64,000 nt of DNA from an uncultured virus (IMG/VR IMGVR_UViG_3300042364_000900) (IMGVR_UViG_3300042364_000900), one strand, 5' to 3'; shown: positions 17,917-62,848, counted from the stretch's first letter. Notes: a model not told the origin generated them from the letters alone. Numbers and translations: made by a program.

Positions 17917-18720
17917 ATGGTTGCACGCAAGGGCAAGGGGGGGAACTCCTCACGGATCGAAATCAGTATCTTTGCTCAAGCGTGGAAAGACACCGTAGAG
18001 CAGTTTGACATAGTAATTTCATCCCTAGTTGCAATAACCTGGGATCTGCGGTGGTTGGGCCAGGAGGAGGACGCGATTCGGCCGGAACGCCGCCTCAAAA
18101 TGACGCCTTCCCAAGTGACAAAAATTAAGGATGGCCTCTCCGATGCGCAGGGAAGGTCACTGGAAGCACTGGCGCTGGCCTTGTACAAATACTCGAAACA
18201 GCATGACAATAGTGCATCATTTGATTTTTACTGCGATCGCCTTTTGGCCTTGTTAAAGGAGCGAGCCGAGGATATCGGGCGAAATGAGGTTTCATCGGCC
18301 AGAATGGAGCGTTTTACAAACATTGCTTCTCCCCGGAAGGGACGTAAGCCATGTCGAAAGAAAGAGACAGAACTAGCTTTGGCAGAGGCCAAAGCTAGTT
18401 CTGTCCGCGAGTTGGTTGAGGACGAAATGAGGGAGCGTGGCCTTGACCCAGATCATGATCATGATCGAGACCGATTTTTGCAAAGCCTGAAGGCTTTGCG
18501 GATCACATTTACGAAACAGGATTTGGCGATCGCGCTATCTGGTAATCGCGTCGAAGATGTATTGTTGGGCCGAATGGCCAATTTTTTATTTAAGGATCGA
18601 TATGTTGGCATCCTGTGGACAATGGATGAACTGCAGGAGATTCAGGACAGCTACAACGCTTCTACTGCTTTTGTGATGCAGAGCCGACAGGGTTCTCCAA
18701 AAAGTCTATCCAGGCGATAA
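17917..18720 (+). CDS. hypothetical protein, candidate repressor divergent from rep
   Basis: GGAG RBS; MTPSQVTKIKDG.S....RSLEALA resembles an XRE-type HTH; position is that of an immunity gene. Confidence 0.55.
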   Translation: MVARKGKGGNSSRIEISIFAQAWKDTVEQFDIVISSLVAITWDLRWLGQEEDAIRPERRLKMTPSQVTKIKDGLSDAQGRSLEALALALYKYSKQHDNSASFDFYCDRLLALLKERAEDIGRNEVSSARMERFTNIASPRKGRKPCRKKETELALAEAKASSVRELVEDEMRERGLDPDHDHDRDRFLQSLKALRITFTKQDLAIALSGNRVEDVLLGRMANFLFKDRYVGILWTMDELQEIQDSYNASTAFVMQSRQGSPKSLSRR

Positions 18721-19373
18721 ATGTCGGCGCAAAGCCGTGCTTTCGCGCCTCGTACTAGGGTGCCCTTTTGGAATTGGCCTAGATATGCTGTGTACTCAAT
18801 GTTTGGGATAAATAGTCCTGTGTTGCCTGGTCGCCACTCCAGGGAATGATAAATTTTGTCTAGGTCACTAGATCTAGAGCATTCCCCGTTTATGTACTGG
18901 AGCCACGAATCTCCATTTGGTGACCAGAGCGGCGTTATGTCAAAGCCTGCCCAGCGACTGGCCGGAACATTGCATAATCTCGTGACGTTTGGCCCTGCCT
19001 GAATCACGACATTGTCTTGGAGCCGCACAACTGCATACCCGTGGGCAGAGTCGATCGCCATGTGCAGGAGGCTGATCTCCCGCAGATCTTGAACTTGTTT
19101 ACTGGGAGCAACCTTGATGGTAAAACGCAGATGCCCCCCAGTTAGGGTAATCACTTCTATGCCGTGCTGTTCGGCATACTTCCTTATAACTTTTTGATTG
19201 CCCCATAGATAATCGGCAATCTCCGGGGTCGTGGAAATGTCGAAGATTCTGTAATCAGACCTATTGGTTTGGGCGATCACAGCCCCAGTAGGATCAAAAA
19301 AACGACACTGCGTTAGTAAATCGTTTTTTTGATCTAAATTTTCAATAACTTTTTTCCAAAATTGAAATATCAT
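18651..19373 (-). CDS. hypothetical protein, possible PAS-like domain
   Basis: YAVVRLQDNVVIQAGPNVTRLCNVPASRWAGFDITPLW resembles a PAS core. Confidence 0.5.
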   Translation of the reverse strand: MIFQFWKKVIENLDQKNDLLTQCRFFDPTGAVIAQTNRSDYRIFDISTTPEIADYLWGNQKVIRKYAEQHGIEVITLTGGHLRFTIKVAPSKQVQDLREISLLHMAIDSAHGYAVVRLQDNVVIQAGPNVTRLCNVPASRWAGFDITPLWSPNGDSWLQYINGECSRSSDLDKIYHSLEWRPGNTGLFIPNIEYTAYLGQFQKGTLVRGAKARLCADIYRLDRLFGEPCRLCITKAVEAL

Positions 19374-21005: not shown

Positions 21006-21009
21006 CGCT

Positions 21010-27090: not shown

Positions 27091-27495
27091 CTAAACCTCC
27101 GAGATACCCCATCCGCCTACGCGGTGGGGAGGGATAGGAGCGGCAATTGAGGGGTTCGATACCCCGATATTGCCAAGTACAGGCGTACCAAAGTAAAATG
27201 AGAAACATGAGATGCCCAAAACCAAAGCGTCTCGAAGCACCTTGACAACCAGGGTTAGGGGGTTCTTGCCAGGAATGCTTGGCAAGGTAAAAACTCTGAG
27301 CACCAAGTAACTGAGATTCTTCTCTCCGTACCGTGGGACACACGGGATCGGGACTCTGAAATGGGTCAAAAAGTCTGTGGACATGATGTAAGACGGGAAC
27401 ATGGCTTGTCTGTGTACGCAAACGTGGATGAAGCAGAAACCTAAATCGTGAGGTTTGGGAATCCCCATCCCTCTATAGGGTGGGGAGGATGTCAA
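27091..27495 (+). mobile_element. non-autonomous IS605-family element (about 405 bp) retaining a tnpB 3' end / omegaRNA-like region
   Basis: Left-end hairpins at 27091-27174, ACCGTGGGACACACGGGA...GTAAGAC...GGATGAAGCAGAAAC, right-end hairpin and TCAA at 27495. Confidence 0.75.
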
Positions 27496-49200: not shown

Positions 49201-49672
49201 CATCCTCCCCACGGCTAGAAGCCGGGGGGTTCCTGAACTGCCGTTGCCCTTTCGAGTTGCCCCTACTGAGGTCTTACACGCCATGTCCGATCCGAGCTTA
49301 CTAGAATATCCCTTGACATCTAGGTGCCCACTTCTGGATCGCTTTCCAGGCATCAATTCCCGTGTGCCCCACGGTACTCAAAGTTCTGTTTGGTTTTCGC
49401 AGTCGTTTGATCTGCTTAGCTGTTTAGAGCGTGTTCGCTACCGCTTTGCTGTTCTATTTTCCAGGCAGTCGTGTGGCACTGTTCCAGCCATATTTGTCGG
49501 GCACGTCCTGGCGGCATTTCAACCTGAAGCAACGCAATCTTAGCAGTTTTGGGTTGACCCCGACAAATAGTTGTCCGTTTCGGCTAATCGCTCCAACGGA
49601 CTTGAGAGGGGATGCTAAATCCCCATGTCTGAAGCCAGGGGCATTGCATCCCCTCTCAATCTCTCCCCTTCG
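49197..49672 (-). mobile_element. non-autonomous IS605-family element (476 bp) with omegaRNA-like right end, inserted 3' of TTAC
   Basis: Minus strand: TTAC, left-end hairpin (49602-49659), ...GAGTACCGTGGGGCACACGGGAATTGATGCCTGG..., right-end hairpin, GGATGTCAG. Confidence 0.82.
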
Positions 49673-49707
49673 GTAAGCCCTATAGACGCGATCGCATCCT
49701 GATGCTA

Positions 49708-49759
49708 AATAGTGATTACACCCCAGAATCCACAATGCTTCTGGGGTGTAATCACTATT
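49708..49759. repeat. inverted repeat with 21-bp arms
   Basis: AATAGTGATTACACCCCAGAA / TTCTGGGGTGTAATCACTATT. Confidence 0.7.
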
Positions 49760-49805
49760 ATTAATTGACGGCAATATATTGGTTTAATATAATTATATTA
49801 AGGCT

Positions 49806-50010
49806 TTGACACTCCCCACCGCATAGGCGGATGGGGATTCTTTAATCTACGAACCGACTTGCATGGGTGCAAGTAATCAAGGTTTCAAACCAGCCAGAGC
49901 ATTCCTGGCTGGTTTGAAACCTTGATTACTTGCGTCCAGAGCCGCGATGATCGGGCGGCTGATGGTTGCGAGTGCCAGAAGCCTGAGTGCGGCGTGGCCC
50001 GCCCTCGACG
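49806..50010 (-). mobile_element. IS605 right-end / omegaRNA-like remnant containing a palindrome with 29-bp arms (49869-49933)
   Basis: Minus strand AGGGCGGGCCACGCC...GCTTCTGG (tnpB tail-like) ... AAAGAATCCCC-hairpin-GTGTCAA. Confidence 0.6.
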
Positions 50011-50098
50011 GGGGGATCTTCGCTCTGGTTGCGAACAATGGGAGTCGGATCGGCGACGGGTGGAAGGTCAACGGGTTGAACAAAAAAGAAAAATGGCA

Positions 50099-50323
50099 TT
50101 AGAAGGGTGCTCCATGTAACTGCATCATTCGGCGGCTGTACGCCTCCTTTGCGATCTCGTGGAACCCTTCCTCAACATCCCGCTCCAGGCTCAACGGAAG
50201 GCTTAGTTTGGCGCAAACACGCCCATAAGCTACCGCGTCACCCCTGCAATTGATTTTTTCAGACTCGTTCAACGGTGTATCCGCCAAGCGTTCACGGTAT
50301 TTTTTTGAGTGGGTAAGTTGCAT
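50099..50323 (-). CDS. small hypothetical protein
   Basis: MQLTHSKKYRERL..., 74 aa. Confidence 0.5.
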   Translation of the reverse strand: MQLTHSKKYRERLADTPLNESEKINCRGDAVAYGRVCAKLSLPLSLERDVEEGFHEIAKEAYSRRMMQLHGAPF

Positions 50324-50439
50324 AATCAATGTGGACTCTTAGAAGGGTTCCAATCACCCCCACTGCGACGGCCTCGGAAACTGGCGCAGTGGGGGTTTTG
50401 GTTTGCGGTTAACCTCCACCGCAAGGGGCGATCGGAGTG

Positions 50440-50646
50440 CTACGAGAAATCAGACAGATCGGCCACCAGCCCCAAGGATTGCGCCGCCTCAATCAACCCC
50501 TCTTGAGAAGCAACCAGTACCGACACACCAGAATCCTTGATCGCCTGAGCCGCGATCGTCACATCCTCGAAATCAGCACCCGCAGACGGAAGATTCAGCG
50601 CTTCCGCGATCGTGCCGTCTTGAGTCCAAATGGTCGTAATAGCCAC
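50440..50646 (-). CDS. small acidic hypothetical protein
   Basis: 68 aa, GAGG RBS, 10 D/E versus 1 K. Confidence 0.65.
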   Translation of the reverse strand: MAITTIWTQDGTIAEALNLPSAGADFEDVTIAAQAIKDSGVSVLVASQEGLIEAAQSLGLVADLSDFS

Positions 50647-50698
50647 AACTTTTCCTCGCTCGATTTACCTTGGTTTGGGGCCGCCCCGTGCGCACCGA

Positions 50699-50851
50699 TT
50701 ACTCGGCGTCAAACTCGGCCAGAACCTCGTCGAGGACTTCCAGCGCCGCCAGGTAGCGGGCGCTGAATTCCTCGCGCTCCTCGTCGGTTTGGTACTGAGC
50801 ACCAATCGACTCGGCGGAAGCAAACAGAGCGGACAGGGTGGAATCGGACAT
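50699..50851 (-). CDS. small highly acidic protein (50 aa, below the ORF-track cutoff)
   Basis: GGAGG RBS; MSDSTLSALFASAESIGAQYQTDEEREEFSARYLAALEVLDEVLAEFDAE, 13 D/E versus 2 R. Confidence 0.7.
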   Translation of the reverse strand: MSDSTLSALFASAESIGAQYQTDEEREEFSARYLAALEVLDEVLAEFDAE

Positions 50852-50995
50852 GGGGTGAACCTCCAAAAAAACAACTCAACAAAACGTCCTTTCGGACTGG
50901 GATGAGTTATCTCAACAGACGGGCCTTTGTCCTCAGTCCCGGAACCCACTCCGGCGGGGAGCCTTTTTAAGGGGAGGCGCACCCCGCATGAATCT

Positions 50996-51067
50996 AAATT
51001 AACTTATTACGTTAAACCCGTCAAGAGAAAAGTTAAACTTGACTCGAAGCACTGAAAACATTAGTAT
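50996..51067. promoter_or_regulatory. back-to-back sigma70-type promoters with an inverted-repeat operator
   Basis: Leftward TTGACG-17-TAATTT (51024-50996); rightward TTGACT-17-TAGTAT (51039-51067); TTAAC-N7-GTTAA at 50999-51015. Confidence 0.7.
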
Positions 51068-51110
51068 AGACCTGTGGCACTCTACACAAGACAATCAAGG
51101 AGGTAATTCA

Positions 51111-51356
51111 GTGGTTCAAGCAGTCGTGGAAGTAATTCGCACAATCAAGGTATCTGCGCCCGAACTGGGCAAGCGCATTCGAGAGGCAAGAAAAGCCGAC
51201 GGGCGATCGGTCACCCAAATTGCTGCTGCTGCTGGGATGTCCGTCCAGAATTGGTATCGAATTGAGGACGAAAAGCAGGCATTACCAGAAGATACGCTCA
51301 GGCTAATTGAGAAGGTGTTGAGCGTTGATTTTGGCGTGAGTTTTCCGGGCCAATAA
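51111..51356 (+). CDS. XRE-family HTH transcriptional regulator
   Basis: GGAGG RBS before GTG; LGKRIREARK...SVTQIAAAAGMSVQNWYRIE. Confidence 0.88.
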   Translation: MVQAVVEVIRTIKVSAPELGKRIREARKADGRSVTQIAAAAGMSVQNWYRIEDEKQALPEDTLRLIEKVLSVDFGVSFPGQ

Positions 51357-51584
51357 AAAACGATCGCCCCCTCTCAAGACAACCACAGAACCTTGCTGCA
51401 CCAGTTTCTCGAACGCCACCCGATCGCCCGCACTAACCATCTGCACTGCCTTATCTAATGCAGCCTCAGAGGTAGCGGCGATCGCCCCTTCCACCGTGAA
51501 ATACTGCCCCGTTGGCAGCTCACTCTCAGGACGCGCTTCTACCTTCGGCTTTTGCTTCGGCCCCATTATTCCGATCTCGGTCAA
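51303..51584 (-). CDS. hypothetical protein or gene fragment downstream of the CRISPR mini-array
   Basis: Protein-like sequence, but weak start and 3' overlap with the HTH gene. Confidence 0.35.
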   Translation of the reverse strand: MTEIGIMGPKQKPKVEARPESELPTGQYFTVEGAIAATSEAALDKAVQMVSAGDRVAFEKLVQQGSVVVLRGGDRFLLARKTHAKINAQHLLN

Positions 51585-51624: not shown

Positions 51625-51776
51625 CGACTCACCCCTATGTGCGTGGGGAAGGCTGATGTAGCGCACTACTTCGATGGTGGAAGCGTAGACTCACCCCTAT
51701 GTGCGTGGGGAAGGCTAGTGAGATCATCTCACTTACCTCAGTCAAAGCGACTCACCCCTATGTGCGTGGGGAAGGC
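51625..51776 (-). CRISPR. orphan CRISPR mini-array, 3 repeats and 2 spacers, type I-E-like
   Basis: 29-nt repeat GCCTTCCCCACGCACATAGGGGTGAGTCG (minus strand; 28 nt identical in all three) at 51625, 51687 and 51748; unique spacers of 33 and 32 nt; CCCC..GGGG hairpin. Confidence 0.9.
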
Positions 51777-52787: not shown

Positions 52788-54832
52788 TGTACGCGCTCGA
52801 TAGCGATCACCAACGCCGCTACCCCAGGAAGACCCGCCAGACCCGACGACGGCAGCAGGAAATCACCGCCCAGGAGCGCCGCCTTGATTTCTCGGCCCAA
52901 CAGGCACTGGAACGGCAGAGCGGAATAGATCTCTGGTATCGCCTCGGAGGCGATATGTTTCTCCAGTGGGCCAAGAGCCATTACCGCCGCAGCAACGGCG
53001 AGCCACTCCACTGGATTGAACCAACCCAGGAAGAGTTTTACCTCGTGATGGGGAACCCCTGGATTGAATTCCTGGTGGTCGAGAAGCCCTCGCAGGTTGG
53101 ATTCACCGAGTCCCTCATCGCGATGCTGGGGTTCATCCTGGCGGAAGTTAAGATTCCGTGCGGCCAGGGCTTCGAGGCAGAACGCAAGCTCCGGGAACTG
53201 GTGCCCAGGATTCAGTCCACATTCGATTTCATTGATCGGATCCAGGCAGTCCGGCGATCGCGCCGTGCCGCAACGGGTCGGAAGGATGTGGATCACAAGG
53301 AACGGAAAATGACGGTCGGGGGCGTGGAGTGTACGTTCTGGTACGCCAGCACCACCACCAAAAACAAGCAGGAACGACAAGCATCCAGTACGCTGTCGAG
53401 CTTCCCGGCCTGGTACCAGGGGGCAGACGAAATCGAACTGTACCCAGAGGGCGTCATTGATGTCGCCAAAAAACGGATGGCCGCGAGCACGCTCCAAACA
53501 AAACCCTTCAGGGTTGGGAGTACTCCCGGCCACGAGGGCGGTATCGTCGATTCACTGGTCCGCAGTTCACTCTACTTTTTCCAGTGGCGTGTCAGGTGTC
53601 CGGCCTGCGGGGAATCACAATTTCTGGATGGATTCGGCAACCTGCTGCAACCTGTCGCGCAGGAGCTGGATGACGGCACCGTTGAGGAACGGTATGTGGA
53701 TGTGACGGGCCGCCCTCTGAAATGGTTCTGCTACGACGACAGCACCCGGCGACTCAGCATCGATACTTCTTACATTGGATGCCAGCACTGCGGAGCCGAA
53801 CTACCCGAAGCGGCGATCGAATCCATCCCGCAGGGTGGAACTGGCGAATTCGTTTGCGTCAACACTGGTGCAAAACTCCGGGATGTGTGCCGCGACCTGA
53901 CACTCCGGCAGGAACCGCTCCATGATTCGGTGGCGTTGCGGCTCCCCCGGCTCGCATCCAAACTGTTCAATCCTGCCGAAACAATCCGGGATCTGATGAC
54001 CTCCCGGAACACTGCTGACGCGATCCAACAGGGCCTGGGCCGAGCCATCACGATCGGGGTCGGGAAAATCTCGCTGCCGCGCCTCCAGCGATCCAGCGGG
54101 TTGGCGTTGCCAGACTGGTGTCAGAGCCGCGCTCCAGATCTGGTTGTCCTGGGGGGTGACCAGGGCAGTGCATTCAACTATGCGGTTCGAACCGAATGGT
54201 ATCTCCCGCCAGATGAGCCAGATCCAGAAGTCCGCTGGCTCGGTGCCCATGTGGTTCTGAGTTGGTGGGGCCATGTCTACGGGTTCGACGGGGTAGAGGA
54301 TGAGATCGCCCGCCACGGCATTGATCTGGTGGGATTCGACGGTGAGCCGGAGAAACAGTTGGCTGCTGCATTCGCCCGGAAGCATCCCGCCCAGGCATTC
54401 TGGTACCAGAAGCCTGTGACTGATAAGGGTACGACCTGCTACCGATCCGGCGATCGCAAAGGCGCGACATTCCTGTTCGATCAGGTGCAGCTCAAGGGCG
54501 AAACATTCCGCCGCACTGAACGGAATATCCAGGATGAGCAAGTCCCGATCTATGCGCTCCACCGCACCTTCGGGTTAGATGCGGTGCGCGATCGCATCTA
54601 CCGGGGGCAGCTCCACATGCCGGAAGGGATGCAGTACGACCCGCGCGATGAAGAAAACCTGTTCCTCCACCTGTTGGCGAGCGAACGCCGTACCGATGGA
54701 ATCTGGAGCCAGACCCCTGGTATCCCGGATCACTACCACCATGCCTTGTGCTTCGCCGAGATGGCGGTTCTGGCTGCATTCTACGAACCCAGGCCCAAAC
54801 GGTTGGCGTTCGGCTCTTTCAAGCGAGGTTGA
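52787..54832 (+). CDS. terL: terminase large subunit (lambda gpA-like)
   Basis: VVEKPSQVGFTE (Walker A variant), GADEIE (Walker B), GSTP, CPACG, nuclease GGDQG...DHYHHA. Confidence 0.9.
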   Translation: MYALDSDHQRRYPRKTRQTRRRQQEITAQERRLDFSAQQALERQSGIDLWYRLGGDMFLQWAKSHYRRSNGEPLHWIEPTQEEFYLVMGNPWIEFLVVEKPSQVGFTESLIAMLGFILAEVKIPCGQGFEAERKLRELVPRIQSTFDFIDRIQAVRRSRRAATGRKDVDHKERKMTVGGVECTFWYASTTTKNKQERQASSTLSSFPAWYQGADEIELYPEGVIDVAKKRMAASTLQTKPFRVGSTPGHEGGIVDSLVRSSLYFFQWRVRCPACGESQFLDGFGNLLQPVAQELDDGTVEERYVDVTGRPLKWFCYDDSTRRLSIDTSYIGCQHCGAELPEAAIESIPQGGTGEFVCVNTGAKLRDVCRDLTLRQEPLHDSVALRLPRLASKLFNPAETIRDLMTSRNTADAIQQGLGRAITIGVGKISLPRLQRSSGLALPDWCQSRAPDLVVLGGDQGSAFNYAVRTEWYLPPDEPDPEVRWLGAHVVLSWWGHVYGFDGVEDEIARHGIDLVGFDGEPEKQLAAAFARKHPAQAFWYQKPVTDKGTTCYRSGDRKGATFLFDQVQLKGETFRRTERNIQDEQVPIYALHRTFGLDAVRDRIYRGQLHMPEGMQYDPRDEENLFLHLLASERRTDGIWSQTPGIPDHYHHALCFAEMAVLAAFYEPRPKRLAFGSFKRG

Positions 54833-55566
54833 TGATGCAGATGATCCAATGGGCAGGGGAATCGATTCATTGGGGAACCCCACCCCGGAGCGATCGCCCC
54901 AAATTCCTGTTCCCGCTGGTGGAAGAATCCGTCCTGGAGGTTGCGTTTTCGGATTCACCGCTCCGGAAACTCCCGAAGGCCGCCGCGATCGCCTGCACGA
55001 GCCGGTTGGCCCAGCGGGCATTGATCGAGCTGCACTGCCCCGAACTAAATCCCTGGTGGGAGCCGTGGCGGTTCCGCGCCGCTGTCGTGAAGGCTCCAGC
55101 CAGTACCCAGAATGAAGGGGTCCGGTTCTTTACCCAGCGGATCGAAATGGTGGATCTGCTGGAACGTTATGCCCCAGGGTTTGCCCATGCTGGCGTAGTG
55201 GAACAGTTCCTCAATGGCGATGCTTACGAGATCGACGGCGTTGTATTCGGCCCCGACCATTTCTATTTTTTCAATGCCCTGCGGCAGACCTGGGCAGGTG
55301 ATGCGATCGCCCACTATGGCGGGGTGGATGATCACGGCATCACGACCCAGCTCCGGCGCGTCGCTCAACAGGTCGTCCAAGCAGTAGGGTTACGCGATTG
55401 CCCATTCTGCTGTGAGTTCCGATTGATCGGTAACCTCTGGAAACTCGTGGAAGTGCAGGCTCGCATCGGCGAAGATCGTCGGGAGTACCGGGAACTGCTG
55501 TGCAGGGGAGATGCGATCGCCGTGGCGGAACGGTGGTCGCATGAGTATCTGGAATCTGCGCTGTAG
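54832..55566 (+). CDS. ATP-grasp domain protein
   Basis: VVKAP.S....GV, VVEQFLNG..YEIDG, CCEFR....KLVEVQARIG; TGATG overlap with terL. Confidence 0.8.
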   Translation: MMQMIQWAGESIHWGTPPRSDRPKFLFPLVEESVLEVAFSDSPLRKLPKAAAIACTSRLAQRALIELHCPELNPWWEPWRFRAAVVKAPASTQNEGVRFFTQRIEMVDLLERYAPGFAHAGVVEQFLNGDAYEIDGVVFGPDHFYFFNALRQTWAGDAIAHYGGVDDHGITTQLRRVAQQVVQAVGLRDCPFCCEFRLIGNLWKLVEVQARIGEDRREYRELLCRGDAIAVAERWSHEYLESAL

Positions 55567-55684
55567 GGAGCGATCGCCCACATCAGTTACGAAAGTCAGG
55601 CCAAATGTGCGGTATGGTTACGGGGCTTAGGCCCCCGCGAAAAAATCGCCTGCACTTGGCTCAAGCACAGGCAGGATAAGGGGT

Positions 55685-56521
55685 TTACGGTCGCGAAGGG
55701 ATGCGATCGCTATGTGATTTCGAGAGAAGTGGTGATTGACCAAGGCATCGATATGCCTCCACCTCTTGCTCGGCTTCATTCATCGCCCGATCCCGGATCT
55801 CCTCTGGTGAAACCACCAGAACTTTCCCTCGGTATCTTCCGAGATCCTGGAGCAGCCAGAAAACGCTCCAACACTTTCGGATGACGATGGTCTTGCCGTC
55901 CACCTGTTCCAGCTCGTCGCCCTCATGGGGTGTGTAGCGGAATCCAGGCTGGATCTGAAGCTGAACTGGGATTGAGTCCAGTCCATGAACCCGCCATTCC
56001 CCAGTAGAGCGGGAAACTGCCGTGATGTGATCGAGCCGGATGGTTCGGTTGTGCCGCAGAGCCTCTGGCTCACCTGAGTCGATCTCCCCTTCTATCCATA
56101 CCCGAAGCTGCGGACGGCCACCCGAAGGCGTCCAGAAATCTCCGTAGTGGCAGTTGTAAACATTGCCGCTGGCGCTGGTGACGGCAAACGACGATCGCTC
56201 CTGAATGAGCTTGTAGAGATCGCTCACTACGTCCCTGGCTACCACTTTCGACCAGAAAGTGGAATCTACCCCGGTTGAGAGGCGAATCCACTCAGATAGC
56301 TGACTTGCCGCCTGAAGGTTGTTCAGGCTCAACAAGCACGTCACCCCCTCCAATAAGGCACTTGTCTGCTCTGCGGTTGGGGCAAACGTATTGATTTCGC
56401 CATTAGCGATCATCTGGCAGAACTTACTTGGATCCAGTCCGTATGACTGGGCGATCGCAGCAAATCGCTGAAACTGATCCTCCCCGTCGGCAAAGCTGAT
56501 TTGTTTTCCAATCCGCGCCAT
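55685..56521 (-). CDS. WYL-domain transcriptional regulator (RHH-like N-terminus, WYL, WCX)
   Basis: HNRTIRLDHI, FWLLQDLGRY....VVSPEEIR; cyanobacterial Sll7009-like architecture. Confidence 0.82.
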   Translation of the reverse strand: MARIGKQISFADGEDQFQRFAAIAQSYGLDPSKFCQMIANGEINTFAPTAEQTSALLEGVTCLLSLNNLQAASQLSEWIRLSTGVDSTFWSKVVARDVVSDLYKLIQERSSFAVTSASGNVYNCHYGDFWTPSGGRPQLRVWIEGEIDSGEPEALRHNRTIRLDHITAVSRSTGEWRVHGLDSIPVQLQIQPGFRYTPHEGDELEQVDGKTIVIRKCWSVFWLLQDLGRYRGKVLVVSPEEIRDRAMNEAEQEVEAYRCLGQSPLLSKSHSDRIPSRP

Positions 56522-56563
56522 ATCCTTCCCTTTGCTCCTGTGTCTACAACTGTAAAACTTGTG

Positions 56564-56592
56564 TTGACAAAAAGCAAGTCATTCCCTACAGT
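56564..56592 (+). promoter_or_regulatory. sigma70-type promoter for the operon divergent from WYL
   Basis: TTGACA-17-TACAGT, flanked by related motifs CTACAACTGTAAAAC and CTACAGTAAAC. Confidence 0.7.
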
Positions 56593-56632
56593 AAACACAG
56601 AAGCTAATTTTGTGGTCACAGAGGGAACCGAA

Positions 56633-57301
56633 ATGACACCGAGGGAGCAGCTCAAGCGCGAAATCATTGAATACCTGATGGAGTCTGGAGCGATTAATCG
56701 GGCCAACCCTGACAAGGTAAAGATTGCTAAGGCTCTCAAGGTGATCAAGGATGCGGCTCACGAGTGGCTTGCCCCCGATGAGGTAAGGAAAAGTCCTCGT
56801 GAGTTTCCTGCTGAGTGGATCAACTACCTCGGTTGGCTCAAGTTGAATCAGGTTGAGCTGGGCGATCGCTTCTACTTCTGCATCGCAAACTCTTTTGCTC
56901 CCCGCCACTATCAGACGGTGGTGGGTTTTGTGCTGAGGCTAGAGGTGATTATTGATGCCGAGATTGATGCGGTTATCGGACAACAAGATAAAGCTGAGTC
57001 GGCGCTGGAACATCAGCGCTCGGCGATTTTTAGGGATGACTACGAGTACGCCGACGTACCCGGTGAAGTAATCGTTTATTTAGACAGGATCGAGGTCCAA
57101 GCGTTTGGATTCCGCGAGGGATTCAAAGAGCTGTTGCCCGCAGGTGGCAAATATCAAGGGAAGGGGACGGGCTGCTGGTGCTATCCCCGAAATGAAAAGT
57201 TTGAAGCAGTTTTCTGTCAGGCCAGAAACGGTCTGTATCACGGAATGCCTGTGCTCTACGCCGATGGCGTTGAAAACCCTTATGGTATCGTCGCCGCTTA
57301 G
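56633..57301 (+). CDS. hypothetical protein
   Basis: GAGGG RBS before ATG 56633. Confidence 0.7.
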   Translation: MTPREQLKREIIEYLMESGAINRANPDKVKIAKALKVIKDAAHEWLAPDEVRKSPREFPAEWINYLGWLKLNQVELGDRFYFCIANSFAPRHYQTVVGFVLRLEVIIDAEIDAVIGQQDKAESALEHQRSAIFRDDYEYADVPGEVIVYLDRIEVQAFGFREGFKELLPAGGKYQGKGTGCWCYPRNEKFEAVFCQARNGLYHGMPVLYADGVENPYGIVAA

Positions 57302-57313
57302 GAGATCATCACT

Positions 57314-57679
57314 ATGACAAGGATGGAATTGGCAGCGGCGATCGCCGCTGCTGTGGACTGCGCAGCAAATGTCTGGCAGTCCTCTGATGGCAAGATAGTT
57401 CGGGTTTACCTGTCCCACCGGGGGAAGAAATACGGGTTCGTCACCGTTGCCCTGAGTGGCATCGAATTTGCGCTGACCAGCTATGCCAATAACGCCTACG
57501 GATCTGCCATTCGTACCACCGCAAATGGCGTGACTATCGACGAACCGGAGCAGATTGCTCCAAGCGTTCGACGATTGACCGCCTCAGAGGCGGATTCGAT
57601 CGCCCGCCAACCTAGAACGATTCACAATTCCGATGATGGTGAGTGGCATTTTGGTGCCGCCGATGAAGAAAGTTTTTAG
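57314..57679 (+). CDS. hypothetical protein
   Basis: AGGAG RBS, 121 aa. Confidence 0.72.
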   Translation: MTRMELAAAIAAAVDCAANVWQSSDGKIVRVYLSHRGKKYGFVTVALSGIEFALTSYANNAYGSAIRTTANGVTIDEPEQIAPSVRRLTASEADSIARQPRTIHNSDDGEWHFGAADEESF

Positions 57680-57691
57680 CAGGAGTAGCTC

Positions 57692-58351
57692 ATGTCAGGA
57701 ATTGATTTTTCAGGATTGTCAGATGAGCAGCTTCTACAACTGCTGACGGAAGCGATGGCCGAGGCGATGAACCGGGGTGAGGTAGTGCGCCTAGCAGCGC
57801 AAGATGCCGTGCTTTCTACAGAGGAGAAGCTCCAAATTCAGCAGCGAGTGGCCGCTCAATACGCAGAGCGAAAGCTGCAGGAGGAGCGGCAGAGGGTAGA
57901 GCGTGAGGCCGAAGAAAAGCACAAGGCCAAAGAACTCAAGCAGCAAGCCGAGAAGACCGAAACACTCTGGTCAGCTCGTGCTGCGATCGTTGCCGCCATC
58001 CGTCAATGGGGCTACGACGGGGATTTTGAGATAAATATTTGGTCCAGCGGAGCAGATCGACGGGTTTACTTCCAGAAGACTGTATCCAGCGGTCGCCGTG
58101 GCTTTACAGCGGAGTGGAAATTCTGCCTGTATGTAACGGGCAATAATTACCAGGCTCCCGGTGCATTTATCGGTGAAGGTGCCAATTGCTGGTTTGACGA
58201 CAAGCAGGAATTGCTCCAAGCGTTTCTGCTTGAAGTCGCAAACGCATGGAAGGGCGACATGAAGATGTCTTCCGATACGGGAACCGCAGAGCCATCTGAG
58301 AAGTGGCTGAAGAAATACCTGGCAGTCCTCAATGGAGGAGTCTCAAAATGA
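57692..58351 (+). CDS. hypothetical protein (coiled coil plus globular domain)
   Basis: AGGAG RBS, 219 aa. Confidence 0.72.
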   Translation: MSGIDFSGLSDEQLLQLLTEAMAEAMNRGEVVRLAAQDAVLSTEEKLQIQQRVAAQYAERKLQEERQRVEREAEEKHKAKELKQQAEKTETLWSARAAIVAAIRQWGYDGDFEINIWSSGADRRVYFQKTVSSGRRGFTAEWKFCLYVTGNNYQAPGAFIGEGANCWFDDKQELLQAFLLEVANAWKGDMKMSSDTGTAEPSEKWLKKYLAVLNGGVSK

Positions 58352-58941
58352 ATCTCACCAATCCCTTCGCCTCTGTTATAGCCCAAGCCGCTCAGCAGGA
58401 AGGGGACACAGAAACCCTGAAGCAATATGCCCAGCGGCTAAATCCGAAGAAGGCTTCTGGTTCCCTCCTCCTTCTCGACATTTCCGGCTCCATGTCGGAA
58501 ACGATTGAGAACGGCATTCGCAAAATCGATATCCTGCGGCAGGCACTGAACCGTCCCCTGCACCCAGGGGAGCAGGCGATCGCATTCAATAGCGCCTGGT
58601 ACCCACTCCTGAGCCTCCAGGCGATTCCTGAACCCAGCGGCAGTACCGCACTGCACTACGCTATACAGGAGGTCGCCACAACCTACAAGCCGGCTACTAC
58701 CCTGGTGGTCTGCGACGGTAGACCGGATTCTCCAGAGCAGGCGCTGGAGGCGATCAGAAAACTGAGCGGCGTGATCAATACGCTCTACATCGGGCCGGAT
58801 AATGATCAGGCGGCCATCGACTTTATGCGGAAATTGGCACGGGCGGGATGCGGTCGCGCTCACTGTTGCGATCTGCGACGGAATGCCGCGCCACAACTCA
58901 GTAGTGCGATCGCTGGCTTACTTCCTCCGAGCCAAGCGTAG
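58348..58941 (+). CDS. von Willebrand factor A (vWA) domain protein
   Basis: MIDAS LLLLDISGSM, GSTAL, VVCDG.P; GGAGGAG RBS and ATGA overlap. Confidence 0.88.
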   Translation: MNLTNPFASVIAQAAQQEGDTETLKQYAQRLNPKKASGSLLLLDISGSMSETIENGIRKIDILRQALNRPLHPGEQAIAFNSAWYPLLSLQAIPEPSGSTALHYAIQEVATTYKPATTLVVCDGRPDSPEQALEAIRKLSGVINTLYIGPDNDQAAIDFMRKLARAGCGRAHCCDLRRNAAPQLSSAIAGLLPPSQA

Positions 58942-58972
58942 GCGAGAAAAGGGGTTTACGCGCACCGCGCCA

Positions 58973-59512
58973 TCAATATGGAATTTCCGTCTCTTCCCAG
59001 TCGCCGCATTCATCACCAGCGGGACCGTAAGGGTGCATCCCGCAGACCAACAGGATGTCGTTGTGGGTATGGCCATGATGGTGTTTGCATCCAAGGCATA
59101 TCGGGTTGGTGGCAGCAACTGGTTTATCCACCATGAAGGTCGTGATCGTCCAGTTGTCTTCCTGTTCCTTAACGGCAGATCCTGCCCTTGGGATTACCCG
59201 GAGGGTGACTTGATCCAGGTGCTTCCTTTCCCCAAGTTTGTACCCTTCGACCTGGCCCCAGATTGTGCGATCGCCATCCCGCAATATCCTGCCTGGTTGG
59301 ATGCTCCAGTTTTGACCCTGGTGAAATCTGATCCGAATGAGCATTGCTCCCGACATCGCATTGACTTCATGCCAATCCAGTACAAAGTTTGCTGACCACA
59401 GAACCGGGCCATCCCGATCGAACTCCATAATCAATCCAGGGGACCAATTCGTGTAACTGTAGGGTCCTGTCGGGCCTTGCAAATTTATTGAGGCAAATCT
59501 CCAGCATTGCAT
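58973..59512 (-). CDS. hypothetical protein with C-terminal DUF6464-like Cys/His domain
   Basis: CLGCKHHHG...LVCGMHPYGP..DECGDW; start uncertain. Confidence 0.65.
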   Translation of the reverse strand: MQCWRFASINLQGPTGPYSYTNWSPGLIMEFDRDGPVLWSANFVLDWHEVNAMSGAMLIRIRFHQGQNWSIQPGRILRDGDRTIWGQVEGYKLGERKHLDQVTLRVIPRAGSAVKEQEDNWTITTFMVDKPVAATNPICLGCKHHHGHTHNDILLVCGMHPYGPAGDECGDWEETEIPY

Positions 59513-59589
59513 AAGGGCGATCGCTCATGTGCCAATTCAGTTTAGTTGACGAATCGGCACAATTAACCAATCTCGATTTGTCAACTAAT

Positions 59590-59615
59590 AAAAAAGCCAC
59601 CCCCGTAGGAGCGGC
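59590..59615 (-). terminator. intrinsic terminator downstream of the radical SAM operon
   Basis: Minus strand GCCGCTCC-TACG-GGGGTGGC-TTTTTT. Confidence 0.7.
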
Positions 59616-59734
59616 GAACGGTGTTCCCAGTTGATCTGCCCGCTGGGGCTTTCCCAAAGGATGCCCAGTGAATGAAGGGGCGATCAATCAGGTCGTGAAA
59701 TCTGTGGCGGGACGATGGAATTTCCCAGAATTTA

Positions 59735-60619
59735 TTAAAGGCGACGAGCGATCGCCGCTTCATGAACCGATTCAGGGGTAGAGCTTGCCACGTTCGAGAT
59801 TCGCAACAGCTCGTTTACCATCGCGATCGCCTCAGTTTTGGTTACCCGAGGCGACAGTTTCAACCCATCCCGGAGATACCACTCCTTTGGAGAGAGAAGC
59901 GATAGGCCAGCATCAGTGACCCGATCGCGCCATCCATCCTCTGGTAGCACTTCGTCAATACCGTGTCCCTCGTACAACAGCTTACTGGAATCAGGCATCC
60001 AGTCCCTCATTGTTTCGGAATTATAGCGCAGGCCCTTGATGCAAACCTCCTGATACCCCAACTCACACAGTCGTGGCAGAAACGACAAATCTGAAACACC
60101 GGAGATGTAGGGATGGCACATAGGTAGGCATCTTACGCTGAACTCCTGTGCCAACTCCAGAGTGCGGAGATGCACTCGACTAGGAACACGCTCGACTGGC
60201 GGTTTGTTGCCAGTGATGGTGACAACCAGGAACAGGTTTGGGATTTGAGCCAGTTCCTGCATCAGATCTCGGTTGATGCTCCACTTGGTCACGACTGTCA
60301 GTAATTTGGCCTCTAAGTGAGTACTGTGAACCCATTCCCAAAAGAACGGGAGTAACTGTGGCATCATGCCATCTGTTACGGCGGTCCAACCAGCAAAGTC
60401 GCCTCGAAACAAACGCCAGGGAGTTGCTTTGAAACGCTGTTGAGTCTCCTGATCTTCCGTAATCCAGGGCGGTACATTCATGAAGGTGCAAGCTTTGTTG
60501 ATGCCCAACAGGCCGCGTGACCAGGCAGCGGTACGGTTGGCGTCCAGTTCGGTGACGTGGCAGTACCGACAGGCAACCGGACAGGCGGGCTTGCCTACTT
60601 CAAACCGAAATTCGCCCAT
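59735..60619 (-). CDS. radical SAM enzyme (spore-photoproduct-lyase-like fold)
   Basis: CPVACRYC (CX3CX2C), VVTK, VTITG, HPYISGVSD. Confidence 0.85.
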   Translation of the reverse strand: MGEFRFEVGKPACPVACRYCHVTELDANRTAAWSRGLLGINKACTFMNVPPWITEDQETQQRFKATPWRLFRGDFAGWTAVTDGMMPQLLPFFWEWVHSTHLEAKLLTVVTKWSINRDLMQELAQIPNLFLVVTITGNKPPVERVPSRVHLRTLELAQEFSVRCLPMCHPYISGVSDLSFLPRLCELGYQEVCIKGLRYNSETMRDWMPDSSKLLYEGHGIDEVLPEDGWRDRVTDAGLSLLSPKEWYLRDGLKLSPRVTKTEAIAMVNELLRISNVASSTPESVHEAAIARRL

Positions 60620-61172
60620 GCCGTGCCAGCTCCTTCAGTATTGCTAAGGTTACATCCTGCTGGGGTTGTTCTGCGTCAACCTCAACAAGGTGATTCAATT
60701 CCTGCCAGTTCGCCCTGTAGCCAATGTTCTGCAATAGCTCAGGCAGTCGCGATCGCTCCATTTCCATCCGGGACTTCCATTTCTCCAGGGAGTCGCCTGC
60801 GCGATCGCGGTCTACGACACGGCGCTGACTCTCTTGCTCTGAAATCTTCAGATGCACAAAAAAATTGAGAAAGCCGTCCCATGAAATGGAGTCTTTCTGA
60901 ATTCGATCACGGGGGAAGCCATCCACGATGCATCCCCCTTGCTTGGGGACAGAATCGTAAAATAGCGCGATTGCTACGTCCGGTGACAAAGGCTCCCAGT
61001 TGGATCTTTTATGTACTTCACGAATGCAATCTGCCAGTTGCCCCTCTCCATTTTTGGCAAGTTCACGGGCGCGATCGCCCAGACTTATGTGGGGAACATT
61101 CAGTATCTTGCTGAGTGCTTCCCCTTGAGTCCCCTTGCCTGCGCCAGGTAATCCCAGTAAAAAGATTCTCAT
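60600..61172 (-). CDS. nucleoside monophosphate kinase (adenylate kinase family, short LID)
   Basis: GLPGAGKGTQ P-loop, HISLGD..RE, IVDGFPR. Confidence 0.9.
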   Translation of the reverse strand: MRIFLLGLPGAGKGTQGEALSKILNVPHISLGDRARELAKNGEGQLADCIREVHKRSNWEPLSPDVAIALFYDSVPKQGGCIVDGFPRDRIQKDSISWDGFLNFFVHLKISEQESQRRVVDRDRAGDSLEKWKSRMEMERSRLPELLQNIGYRANWQELNHLVEVDAEQPQQDVTLAILKELARHGRISV

Positions 61173-61408: not shown

Positions 61409-62848
61409 TTGACTTCTCCCCCGCATGAATGACGGGGGATTCCCAAGTGATGCTACGCAACGGGCTGAAGCCGCGTTGCTTCGCTTTTCCCTTGAGCTGT
61501 CACCCACAACTTAATGCGGGTGGGGGCAGTCAAAGACCCCCTACCAACTCCGCTCAGACTAAATCCAAGCATCGTCGCTACTTTACGCAGAATGTTGGCA
61601 GCGCCATTACAATCCGCGTTGATATACCAATTCTGAGCAGTCCTGAACAACCCCCGCTTCGTTCGCTTCCCAGATGACTTCCAGCTATCAGGTTTTTCAC
61701 CGAATGTCGGCAAAAAGTCATCATCCACAAACGACGCTTGAGAGGTATACGACTCCTCAGTTTCAACAAACTCTATCCCATGCTGCTCTGCTAACTGAGC
61801 AATGCGCTCTTTCAGCTTTGCAGTTGGGATCTGCACAAACTTCTGATTGGTCTTCTTGCCCAGGTTGGAGCCGTCCTTTTGCCGCTGGTTCCAGCCAAAT
61901 ACAATTCGTCCAATCCGGTTTTTGATGCAATGGTCAACGACAATCCGCGCTGCCTTGTTCACCGCGTCGCGCATCTGACGATTGCGTTTCTCGGTGAGTT
62001 GAGCAAGTCGTTTCGACCAAAAGTCCTGTGACTTGCCCTCTTTCAGCGAGGCAATCTGTTTGTTGTGCCAGCGGTTCAGCGATTTGAGGTGCAGTCCATC
62101 CACAATGAAGCTGGTTCCCACATTGCTGACGCAGGTGAGCCAATTATTCAGTCCCGAATCAATCCCCAGCACCCGCATCGGGTCTACATCAACTTGGACG
62201 GGTTTCAGGCGATAGACAAACTCAGTGTAGAAACACCCGTTGCGCGGCAGAATCCGTAGTTCTTTAATGTCCTCAAATTTGAGGTTAGAGGGCATTGGAA
62301 CGGTGAACGAATCAATCTGGAACCACGTCTTCACCAACTGCCCCAGCGGAACCCGGATCATCCCATCAATCAGTTTCAGCGCTTGTTTGGGATAGCTGAC
62401 TACTGCCAACCCTCCCTTCTTCCGGTAGTCGGGCAATTTGGGCTTCTCTGCCAACTCTCCGTCCCGCCACAGCTTTGACAATGCTCGATACGACTTGAAT
62501 GACTCGTAGACTGAGCGAAGAACTTGTTGTGCAGCTTGGGAATAGAGAACTTGGAAGTGCTTACTGGATTTGTACTCAGCATCCAGGGTGAATTTGCCAA
62601 TCCACCGCCCGGTCTTGAAATGCAGTTGACGGGCATAGTAGATGCCCTGATTAGTCAGCTTGTTCGCCTCAGAGCAGATAAACTCCACCACCGCCCTGAG
62701 TTCGTTGTTGGGGTTAAGTAAAACTTGCTGGCATCCAAACATAAGACAATTGTACCAACTATTTCATCTCACTGGGGGCTAAAGCCCCTTGAGTTGACTG
62801 TATCCCCTCGCTGAAGCGGAGGGGCTTTAGTCTGCCCACATCGCCTCA
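61409..62848 (-). mobile_element. tnpB-only (IS1341-type) IS200/IS605 element, 1440 bp, inserted 3' of TTAC and ending TCAA
   Basis: Hairpins at 62804-62824 and 61418-61438; removal restores the CYTH frame and the F-D-Y-E-I-P motif. Confidence 0.9.
61453..62742 (-). CDS. tnpB: TnpB, Zn-finger-less subfamily
   Basis: LGIDSGLNN, IVFGWN (no canonical RuvC-II Glu), TEESYTS, INADCNGAANI. Confidence 0.92.
   Translation of the reverse strand: MFGCQQVLLNPNNELRAVVEFICSEANKLTNQGIYYARQLHFKTGRWIGKFTLDAEYKSSKHFQVLYSQAAQQVLRSVYESFKSYRALSKLWRDGELAEKPKLPDYRKKGGLAVVSYPKQALKLIDGMIRVPLGQLVKTWFQIDSFTVPMPSNLKFEDIKELRILPRNGCFYTEFVYRLKPVQVDVDPMRVLGIDSGLNNWLTCVSNVGTSFIVDGLHLKSLNRWHNKQIASLKEGKSQDFWSKRLAQLTEKRNRQMRDAVNKAARIVVDHCIKNRIGRIVFGWNQRQKDGSNLGKKTNQKFVQIPTAKLKERIAQLAEQHGIEFVETEESYTSQASFVDDDFLPTFGEKPDSWKSSGKRTKRGLFRTAQNWYINADCNGAANILRKVATMLGFSLSGVGRGSLTAPTRIKLWVTAQGKSEATRLQPVA

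Follow-up and report, generated by a model that had tools for sequence, protein, structure and literature searches.

A candidate repressor-controlled accessory cassette with two small acidic genes and a portable XRE-family regulator in a cyanobacterial phage-like element

Between the tape-measure gene and the terminase genes of a cyanobacterial tailed phage or phage-plasmid lies an island whose core, as it stands, is an ordinary repressor-controlled accessory cassette. Two adjacent genes for strongly acidic mini-proteins, ORF A and ORF B, lie divergent from the gene of a small XRE-family helix-turn-helix (HTH) regulator; two promoters stand back to back between them, a palindrome overlaps the leftward one, this control region is conserved in a relative, and the HTH gene is spread as a module over other mobile elements. 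The architecture that a sequence-only reading of this DNA had claimed is real, and better supported than that reader could know. Regarding function, we tentatively favor a portable, repressor-gated cassette in which the HTH protein shuts the leftward promoter and the products of A and B act on host proteins. An anti-defence function of A and B in the broad sense is a minority hypothesis, unlikely although by no means negligible, and an anti-CRISPR function specifically is highly improbable. The features of the island are collected in Table 1.

Table 1. Features of the island and its flanks, with positions counted from the first letter of the window.
Feature	Position	Strand	Remarks
Hairpin-repeat cluster, IS200/IS605-end-like or MITE-like	49548..49940		Left flank of the island; context
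ORF C, 74 aa, neutral	50099..50323	-	Doubtful gene
12-bp hairpin between B and C	50356..50396		T-run TTTTGGTTTG after the hairpin on the plus strand only
ORF B, 68 aa, net charge -9.5, GTG start	50440..50646	-	GAGGA Shine-Dalgarno 6 nt before the GTG
ORF A, 50 aa, net charge -11.5	50699..50851	-	GGAGG Shine-Dalgarno ~7 nt upstream of the ATG
Structured 5' leader of ORF A, ~138 nt	50852..50989	-	Transcription start placed from the -10 position
Leftward promoter candidate, TTGACG (51024-51019), 17-nt spacer, TAATTT (51001-50996)	50996..51024	-	8/12
Putative operator palindrome TTAAC-N7-GTTAA, TTAACTTATTACGTTAA	50999..51015		Overlaps the leftward promoter
Third half-site GTTAAAC	51032..51038		Abuts the rightward -35; partly kept in L008 (CTTAAAC)
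Rightward promoter of the HTH gene, TTGACT-17-TAGTAT	51039..51067	+	Called by the promoter scan, 9/12
XRE-family HTH regulator, 81 aa, GTG start, AAGGAGG Shine-Dalgarno, monocistronic	51111..51356	+	Divergent from A and B
ORF E, 87 aa (93 aa from the TTG at 51584)	51303..51566	-	Codon score 0.22, coding-like; context, outside the cassette
CRISPR-like mini-array, three 28-nt direct repeats, two unique spacers of 34 and 33 nt	51626..51776		Context

The window, i.e., the whole stretch of 64,000 nt analysed here, stems from a cyanobacterial tailed-phage or phage-plasmid-like element with its origin in lake-water metagenomes. GCGATCGC is abundant in it, and its proteins are carried by a contig of 145,483 bases. 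Apart from a tape-measure protein of 3,791 aa (phrog_1533, 1.6e-85), the window encodes a baseplate or hub-like protein, endolysin-type peptidases, ParB, a DnaD-like replication protein, methyltransferases, and a sigma factor. The stop codon of the tape-measure gene (49200) and the start codon of terS (51936) delimit the island, and terS (Terminase_2, 2.1e-23) is followed by a GpA-type terL. This terL shares 41% identity over 95% of its length with the terL of the Nostoc sp. C052 plasmid pC052_F and has no match at E<=1e-5 among cultured phage records; on these comparisons, the element is classed as a cyanobacterial tailed phage or phage-plasmid. A scan of viral contigs with terL gave no match, and the single weak match of the corresponding terS scan (L001) was left unused.

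Two independent lake samples from 2024 carry the island without a single letter changed, and the metagenome contigs reveal no variation over it. They break at the hairpin-repeat cluster on its left flank, with other flanks beyond. BLAST of the island found no match in phages and, in plasmids, only a 37-nt repeat match, and the terL locus of the Nostoc relative bears no similarity to A, B, C, E, or the HTH gene. ORF E, which is convergent with the HTH gene and overlaps it by 54 nt, has no family match in Pfam, PHROGs, NCBIfam, or PADLOC and no relatives in the viral contigs. Searches for tRNAs found none, TRF reported no tandem repeat, and Rfam returned only sub-threshold, miRNA-like matches for the hairpins.

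Both acidic ORFs are real genes. The counts given in the sequence-only reading are exact: ORF A contains 13 D/E and two K+R (both R), and ORF B contains ten D/E and one K. With respect to negative charge density they rank first and second among the 75 coding-like ORFs (>=45 aa) in the window, and chance is an unlikely source of two such extremes lying next to each other. Coding potential was judged by a codon log-odds score, expressed per codon and trained on 20 long ORFs of the window, which averages 0.23 (sd 0.10) in genes and -0.11 in off-frame windows, with a 95th percentile of 0.08 in the latter. In their own frames, A and B score 0.33 and 0.38, respectively. ORF A has three metagenomic homologues of 52-54 aa with 79-81% identity, and 35 of its 50 columns are invariant. 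For ORF B, an exhaustive HMMER search gave two distant homologues, P0007, which has 108 aa, 58% identity, and an insert duplicated internally, and P0008 (62 aa, 64% identity), while the word-index search of 5.8 billion clusters retrieved only the window's own B. Homologues of both are very few in this collection. The AF2 model of A is a two-helix hairpin (helices 2-18 and 23-49) with a pLDDT of 88.7, and the single-sequence AF2 model of B is a small alpha/beta fold of the order strand-helix-helix-strand-helix with a pLDDT of 77.9. It is the combination of Shine-Dalgarno sites, codon scores above the gene mean, homologues, and the confident fold of A that establishes the two as genes.

These genes represent two tiny protein families, real but unnamed. 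Neither protein has a match in Pfam, PHROGs, NCBIfam, or PADLOC, or a PDB sequence match of note, and fold searches gave nothing significant for B (Foldseek PDB, VIA wide, BFVD) or for A (Foldseek PDB). Neither the A nor the B alignment found a match in metagenome scans, nor did B in a scan of viral contigs. A complex prediction for A and the HTH protein yielded no call (score 0.01). Four candidates from the scans with the A alignment (L002-L005) were dropped as chance YQTDEERE-like matches inside unrelated large ORFs.

The third member of the proposed operon fared differently. The 74-aa ORF that the sequence-only reading had listed beside A and B does exist, as ORF C, but it is probably neither a gene nor part of the operon. 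Its codon score of 0.06 falls below the 95th percentile of off-frame windows and its Shine-Dalgarno site is weak; the word-index search found no homologue beyond the window's own copy, Pfam, PHROGs, NCBIfam, and PADLOC hold no match, and the atlas model reaches a pLDDT of 0.49. Furthermore, the 111 nt separating it from B are strongly structured on the minus strand (-45.1 kcal/mol, z -3.3).

The divergent gene encodes a protein with clear XRE-family affiliation, as had been claimed, and has a promoter of its own. Pfam assigns it to HTH_31 (5.8e-9, 36.6 bits with a cut-off of 27) and HTH_3 (7.3e-6, 26.4 bits with a cut-off of 23), and its PHROG matches are transcriptional regulators and repressors. 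The leftward promoter is the less certain of the pair. The scan called none in this direction, as the best candidate lies below its threshold and has a weak -10 box (3/6). "Near-consensus", the term used before, overstates a candidate with eight of twelve matching positions, which nonetheless is conserved in the viral contig L008 (see below). The inverted repeat reported to overlap this promoter does so. It covers 14 nt of the spacer and 3 nt of the -10 box and occurs a single time in 64 kb, against 0.03 expected occurrences; the pattern was present in 3 of 100 shuffles. On the other side, the predicted leader of A folds with -55.4 kcal/mol (z -2.5), a stability equaled in 1 of 200 shuffles, and in this fold a 5' anti-SD stretch pairs with the Shine-Dalgarno region of A.

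Comparison with related loci strengthens this picture of the control region. A scan of viral contigs with the HTH protein yielded four relatives, L008, L009, L010, and L011, with 85%, 71%, 48%, and 39% identity, respectively. In tblastx, L008 and the window have only the HTH gene and the control region in common. Within a conserved alignment block of approximately 58 nt, both arms of the palindrome are identical and one change lies inside N7; the leftward promoter reads TTGACG-17-TAATCT, as compared to the -10 box TAATTT in the window, and the rightward promoter reads TTGACG-17-TACTAT. The leader and the cargo of L008, ORFs of 71 aa and 49 aa that lack a Pfam match, are unrelated to those of the window. 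Exact operator arms are common to this one other locus only, and a search with the operator pattern likewise returned only the contig of L008. In L013, the site is ATAAC-N7-GTTAT, i.e., the 5-N7-5 layout is kept and the change is symmetric in both arms.

At a larger scale, tblastn revealed members of the HTH family on 9 Nodularia phage records (42-44% identity) and on 36 plasmid records. Going by the leading word of the organism name, cyanobacterial genera account for at least 32 of these plasmid records and Cupriavidus for two, while two are not listed. Eleven of the 13 loci examined have a divergent gene directly upstream of the HTH gene, the exceptions being L014 and L018. Upstream of nine HTH genes of the family, 11 copies of the hexamer ACGTTA/TAACGT fall within 1,350 nt, compared to 37 copies in the remaining 125,728 nt, which is a 28-fold enrichment; at least one copy is present at five of the nine loci, and a leftward CTTGAC[AG] box at seven. 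Taken together, the comparative evidence supports a divergent promoter with an ACGTTA-type operator throughout the family. Judged from these sequences, the HTH gene and its bidirectional promoter form a portable module that recurs on plasmids and phages of cyanobacteria and comes with a candidate operator motif.

The cargo opposite to the regulator varies widely. L013 carries a GIY-YIG nuclease and a 370-aa HTH protein, L015 DUF3768 and small hypotheticals, L016 DUF3850, L010 a Mu-like early operon with DUF2811 and GemA, L011 a 176-aa XRE protein, and L017 and L019-L021 hypotheticals of 99 to ~390 aa. The HTH gene of L008 adjoins a Rha regulator and that of L014 adjoins HicAB, while the homologue in L009 comes second in an operon with two HTH genes and follows a GIY-YIG domain within one fused protein. 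An inspection of the HTH neighbors had been proposed as a check by association. Over the 13 loci, it revealed heterogeneous cargo that for the most part lacks annotation and is not generally acidic, with no anti-defence annotation among the divergent genes. Since the cargo of the same HTH family is so heterogeneous, the identity of the regulator says little about the role of its cargo, and guilt by association gives no functional call for A and B.

On this basis, the reading that we tentatively prefer can be put in terms of a mechanism. Once the element has entered a naive cell, the leftward promoter would fire and the products of ORF A and ORF B would be made. The HTH protein, probably as a dimer, would bind the 17-bp palindrome over the spacer and the -10 box, and as it accumulates the leftward promoter would be turned off; the further half-site might allow an HTH contact at its own promoter. 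The structured leader may act as a second brake by sequestering the ribosome-binding site of A. Such a burst-then-repress logic would resemble that of Aca-controlled acr operons in a divergent layout, with ORF C probably outside the operon. The two proteins would most likely inhibit host nucleic-acid-binding proteins stoichiometrically or act as decoys for them, serving either host takeover or anti-defence.

Other explanations were weighed against this repressor-gated cassette. The island could be a lysogeny or maintenance switch with the HTH protein as a Cro/CI-like repressor and A and B as early regulators, for instance an acidic anti-repressor sequestering the HTH protein. More distant relatives do sit in classical switch positions, as exemplified by the divergent XRE protein of L011, the GemA-containing early region of L010, and the Rha neighbor of L008, and the best NCBIfam match of the regulator is to RstR-type phage repressors (6e-4, well below the cut-off). 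However, the leftward operon encodes no second DNA-binding protein, and the regulator itself is devoid of a C-terminal oligomerisation or peptidase domain. The module is, moreover, common to unrelated elements and many plasmids, unlike an element-specific immunity region. We regard such a switch as improbable.

Some other service to host or element, e.g., superinfection exclusion, a toxin-antitoxin-like pair, or a degenerate nuclease fragment with B as a PIN-like remnant, is judged a little less probable again. It draws on a lead from the language-model neighbors of B in the protein atlas, which include short-protein clusters named PIN domain-containing or with PF01850 in 13% of their members (score 0.91-0.92), on the HicAB and GIY-YIG nuclease genes adjoining HTH relatives (L014; L013, L009), and on a PADLOC match of the regulator to CapH-type defence regulators (4e-6), which reflects generic XRE similarity. 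For B itself, this is opposed by the missing Pfam match, by a best structural Z of 3.1 with no PIN domain among the rows listed, and by the absence of an N-terminal PIN half upstream of B in any frame. Neither A nor B matches a family in Pfam, PADLOC, or NCBIfam, and both proteins are acidic, unlike typical toxins.

A further rival is a true anti-CRISPR locus. In such a locus, A and/or B would inhibit a host CRISPR-Cas system, the HTH protein would be an Aca, and the neighboring mini-array would cooperate with them, e.g., as an RNA decoy. The distance of 270 bp stated for the array is accurate: its three repeats begin ~270 nt past the HTH stop codon, and it ends 160 nt before the start codon of terS. 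CRISPR-like repeats thus lie less than 1 kb from A and B, and small acidic products, a promoter with a putative operator, and a conserved regulator with variable cargo likewise speak for this reading. The Acr/Aca-like character that had been suggested for the island holds for the divergent HTH gene, the palindrome on the promoter, and the small acidic cargo, but not for membership among acr-aca loci, to which layout and the missing Acr or Aca homology are opposed. New Acrs typically come without homologues, so that lacking homology does not exclude an Acr function.

A phage mini-array with spacers would depend on host Cas proteins of its type; therefore an Acr against that type would be self-defeating, and a phage with its own array using host Cas would presumably not gain from inhibiting the same system. 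The Racr study keeps mini-arrays apart from solitary repeats. In our searches, the spacers have no other match within the window, and the repeat has no Rfam CRISPR-DR family at E<=1 and, as a 25-nt query, no exact match in the viral contigs. A terminase recognition site also fits the array, given its position 160 nt upstream of terS and its phasing of 61-62 nt; phased repeats upstream of terS were not found in the Nostoc relative. The HTH gene is divergent, whereas according to PMC8633003 and PMC9410906 most known acr genes lie upstream of aca, often in one operon. Finally, no solved Aca protein is among the 14 PDB matches (E<=1) of the regulator, and neither A nor B matches an Acr family in Pfam or PHROGs. 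All considered, a true anti-CRISPR locus is very unlikely.

Least probable of all, A and B could be ORFs in decay or devoid of function, lying in a junk-rich stretch where late operons meet, as IS/MITE-like repeats and ~900 nt devoid of convincing genes flank the island and homologues are so scarce among the 5.8 billion clusters, but strong codon scores, good Shine-Dalgarno sites, intact homologues at 58-81% identity, and the letter-identical island in two lake samples stand against it.

If the repressor-gated cassette indeed gates anti-defence proteins, its significance would extend beyond this island. Few counter-defence genes of cyanobacterial phages came up in our literature search, and a widespread regulator would be a handle for finding more. 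The boldest form of this idea, in which A and B are new anti-defence proteins of the DNA-mimic type from a freshwater cyanobacterial phage and the divergent XRE regulator of ~80 aa with its ACGTTA-type palindromes is a cyanobacterial functional analogue of Aca, appears improbable to us. If it were true, the regulator could anchor guilt-by-association searches for counter-defence genes, since it is widespread in plasmid records (36, mostly cyanobacterial) and Nodularia phage records (nine).

Among known systems, Ocr, ArdA, AcrIF2, AcrIIA4, and Ugi are acidic DNA-mimic inhibitors, and A and B, as proteins from a phage, share with them a small size and a very high negative charge density. No sequence or fold similarity to them was found for A or B in Pfam, PHROGs, PDB sequences, and the fold searches, and A is a simple two-helix hairpin; DNA mimicry by A and B is suggested by composition only. 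The lambdoid switches of the Cro/CI type are similar to the locus in their XRE-fold regulator, a 17-bp site of two-fold symmetry, and back-to-back divergent promoters. They differ in that the window has one DNA-binding protein and one full palindrome rather than a tripartite operator, and its leftward genes encode acidic mini-proteins, not a second repressor. Virus-borne mini-CRISPR arrays and RNA anti-CRISPRs (PMC6858448, PMC10651486) resemble the array of the window in being short, cas-less, and carried by a viral element, with small candidate anti-defence genes within 1 kb; here, the position and phasing of the array also fit a terminase site.

A further parallel is given by the Aca-regulated acr operons (Aca1-Aca14). 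According to PMC13551039, the acr promoter has inverted repeats to which Aca proteins bind. Both systems combine a small HTH repressor and an inverted-repeat operator on the promoter, each putative in the window, with a small, fast-evolving cargo on mobile elements, and in both the cargo is exchanged next to a conserved regulator, as seen in L008 and in the varying divergent gene of 11 of the 13 loci. In contrast to Aca, the HTH gene of the window is divergent, with its own promoter and Shine-Dalgarno site, and is not the last gene of a cargo operon, and the cargo of its family includes large proteins and nucleases. Pfam, PHROGs, NCBIfam, and PDB give no Acr, Aca, or anti-restriction homology for cargo or regulator, the latter matching generic XRE proteins only. 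Because the operon layout differs and solved Aca proteins are absent from the PDB matches of the regulator, we do not class the locus as acr-aca; by analogy, its regulatory logic is Aca-like.

Two of the other loci carrying relatives of the HTH gene, the XRE-type regulator divergent from the small acidic ORF A and ORF B, link this family with GIY-YIG nucleases. In L009 (4698-5240), the HTH follows the nuclease domain in a fusion, and in L013 (2058-2654) the nuclease is the divergent neighbour of the HTH gene. In the Nostoc phage-plasmid relative L007, one gene (18481-18795), about 8 kb from terL, bears the annotation CRISPR-associated Csx3. ORF B represents the minimal form of its family, as compared to the 108-aa metagenomic homologue P0007, where an insert of approximately 40 residues, composed of two similar segments (YAADV...PEHT, twice), separates both conserved blocks.

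In the predicted fold of the ORF A leader (50852-50989, minus strand), the 5' stretch GGGGUGCGCCUCC is paired with the Shine-Dalgarno region GGAGGUUCACCCC, a pairing by which translation may be controlled. The leader in L008, another locus with a relative of the HTH gene, is unlike that of ORF A.

Across the doubtful gene ORF C, the best promoter match of the region 49765-50405 is directed rightward (TTGACG-17-TATAAT, 11/12, at 49765-49793), and a hairpin at 50356-50396 followed by a T-run would terminate transcription of the plus strand. Together, these elements could delimit a plus-strand RNA of about 600 nt antisense to ORF C. A 51-aa ORF on the plus strand (49947-50102) scores 0.195 in the codon model built from the window's long ORFs.

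Three hairpin repeats, with arms of 14, 21 and 34 bp, occupy 49548-49940. A 34-nt unit (49803-49836) is found again at 21007, and copies that are partial and weaker occur at 27107, 1688, 24769 and 27459; the unit matches DNA of the Nostoc plasmid pC052_F immediately 3' of a tnpB gene. Pieces of 49548-49940 were also found in metagenome contigs with different flanks. The stretch looks like debris of IS200/IS605 ends or MITE-like elements.

Downstream of terL, no portal gene was recognised in 54748-61172, a region that may constitute an accessory or defence-like island.

Features downstream of terL
Feature	Position	Location
WYL/WCX-type regulator	55685-56521	downstream of terL
VWA-domain protein	58303-58941	downstream of terL
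Adenylate-kinase-like AAA protein	60600-61172	downstream of terL
TnpB gene	61453-62742	after the adenylate-kinase-like AAA protein gene

ORF E (51303-51584, minus strand) encodes a basic protein of 87-93 aa, and its codon score, 0.22, is gene-like. Read along the minus strand, it comes directly after the mini-array, and it shares 54 nt with the 3' end of the HTH gene; neither family matches nor viral relatives were found for it. The array itself (51626-51776) consists of three repeats phased at 61-62 nt and ends 160 nt upstream of terS. Instead of, or besides, being a CRISPR mini-array, it could serve as a recognition site of the terminase small subunit, of the pac or cos type.
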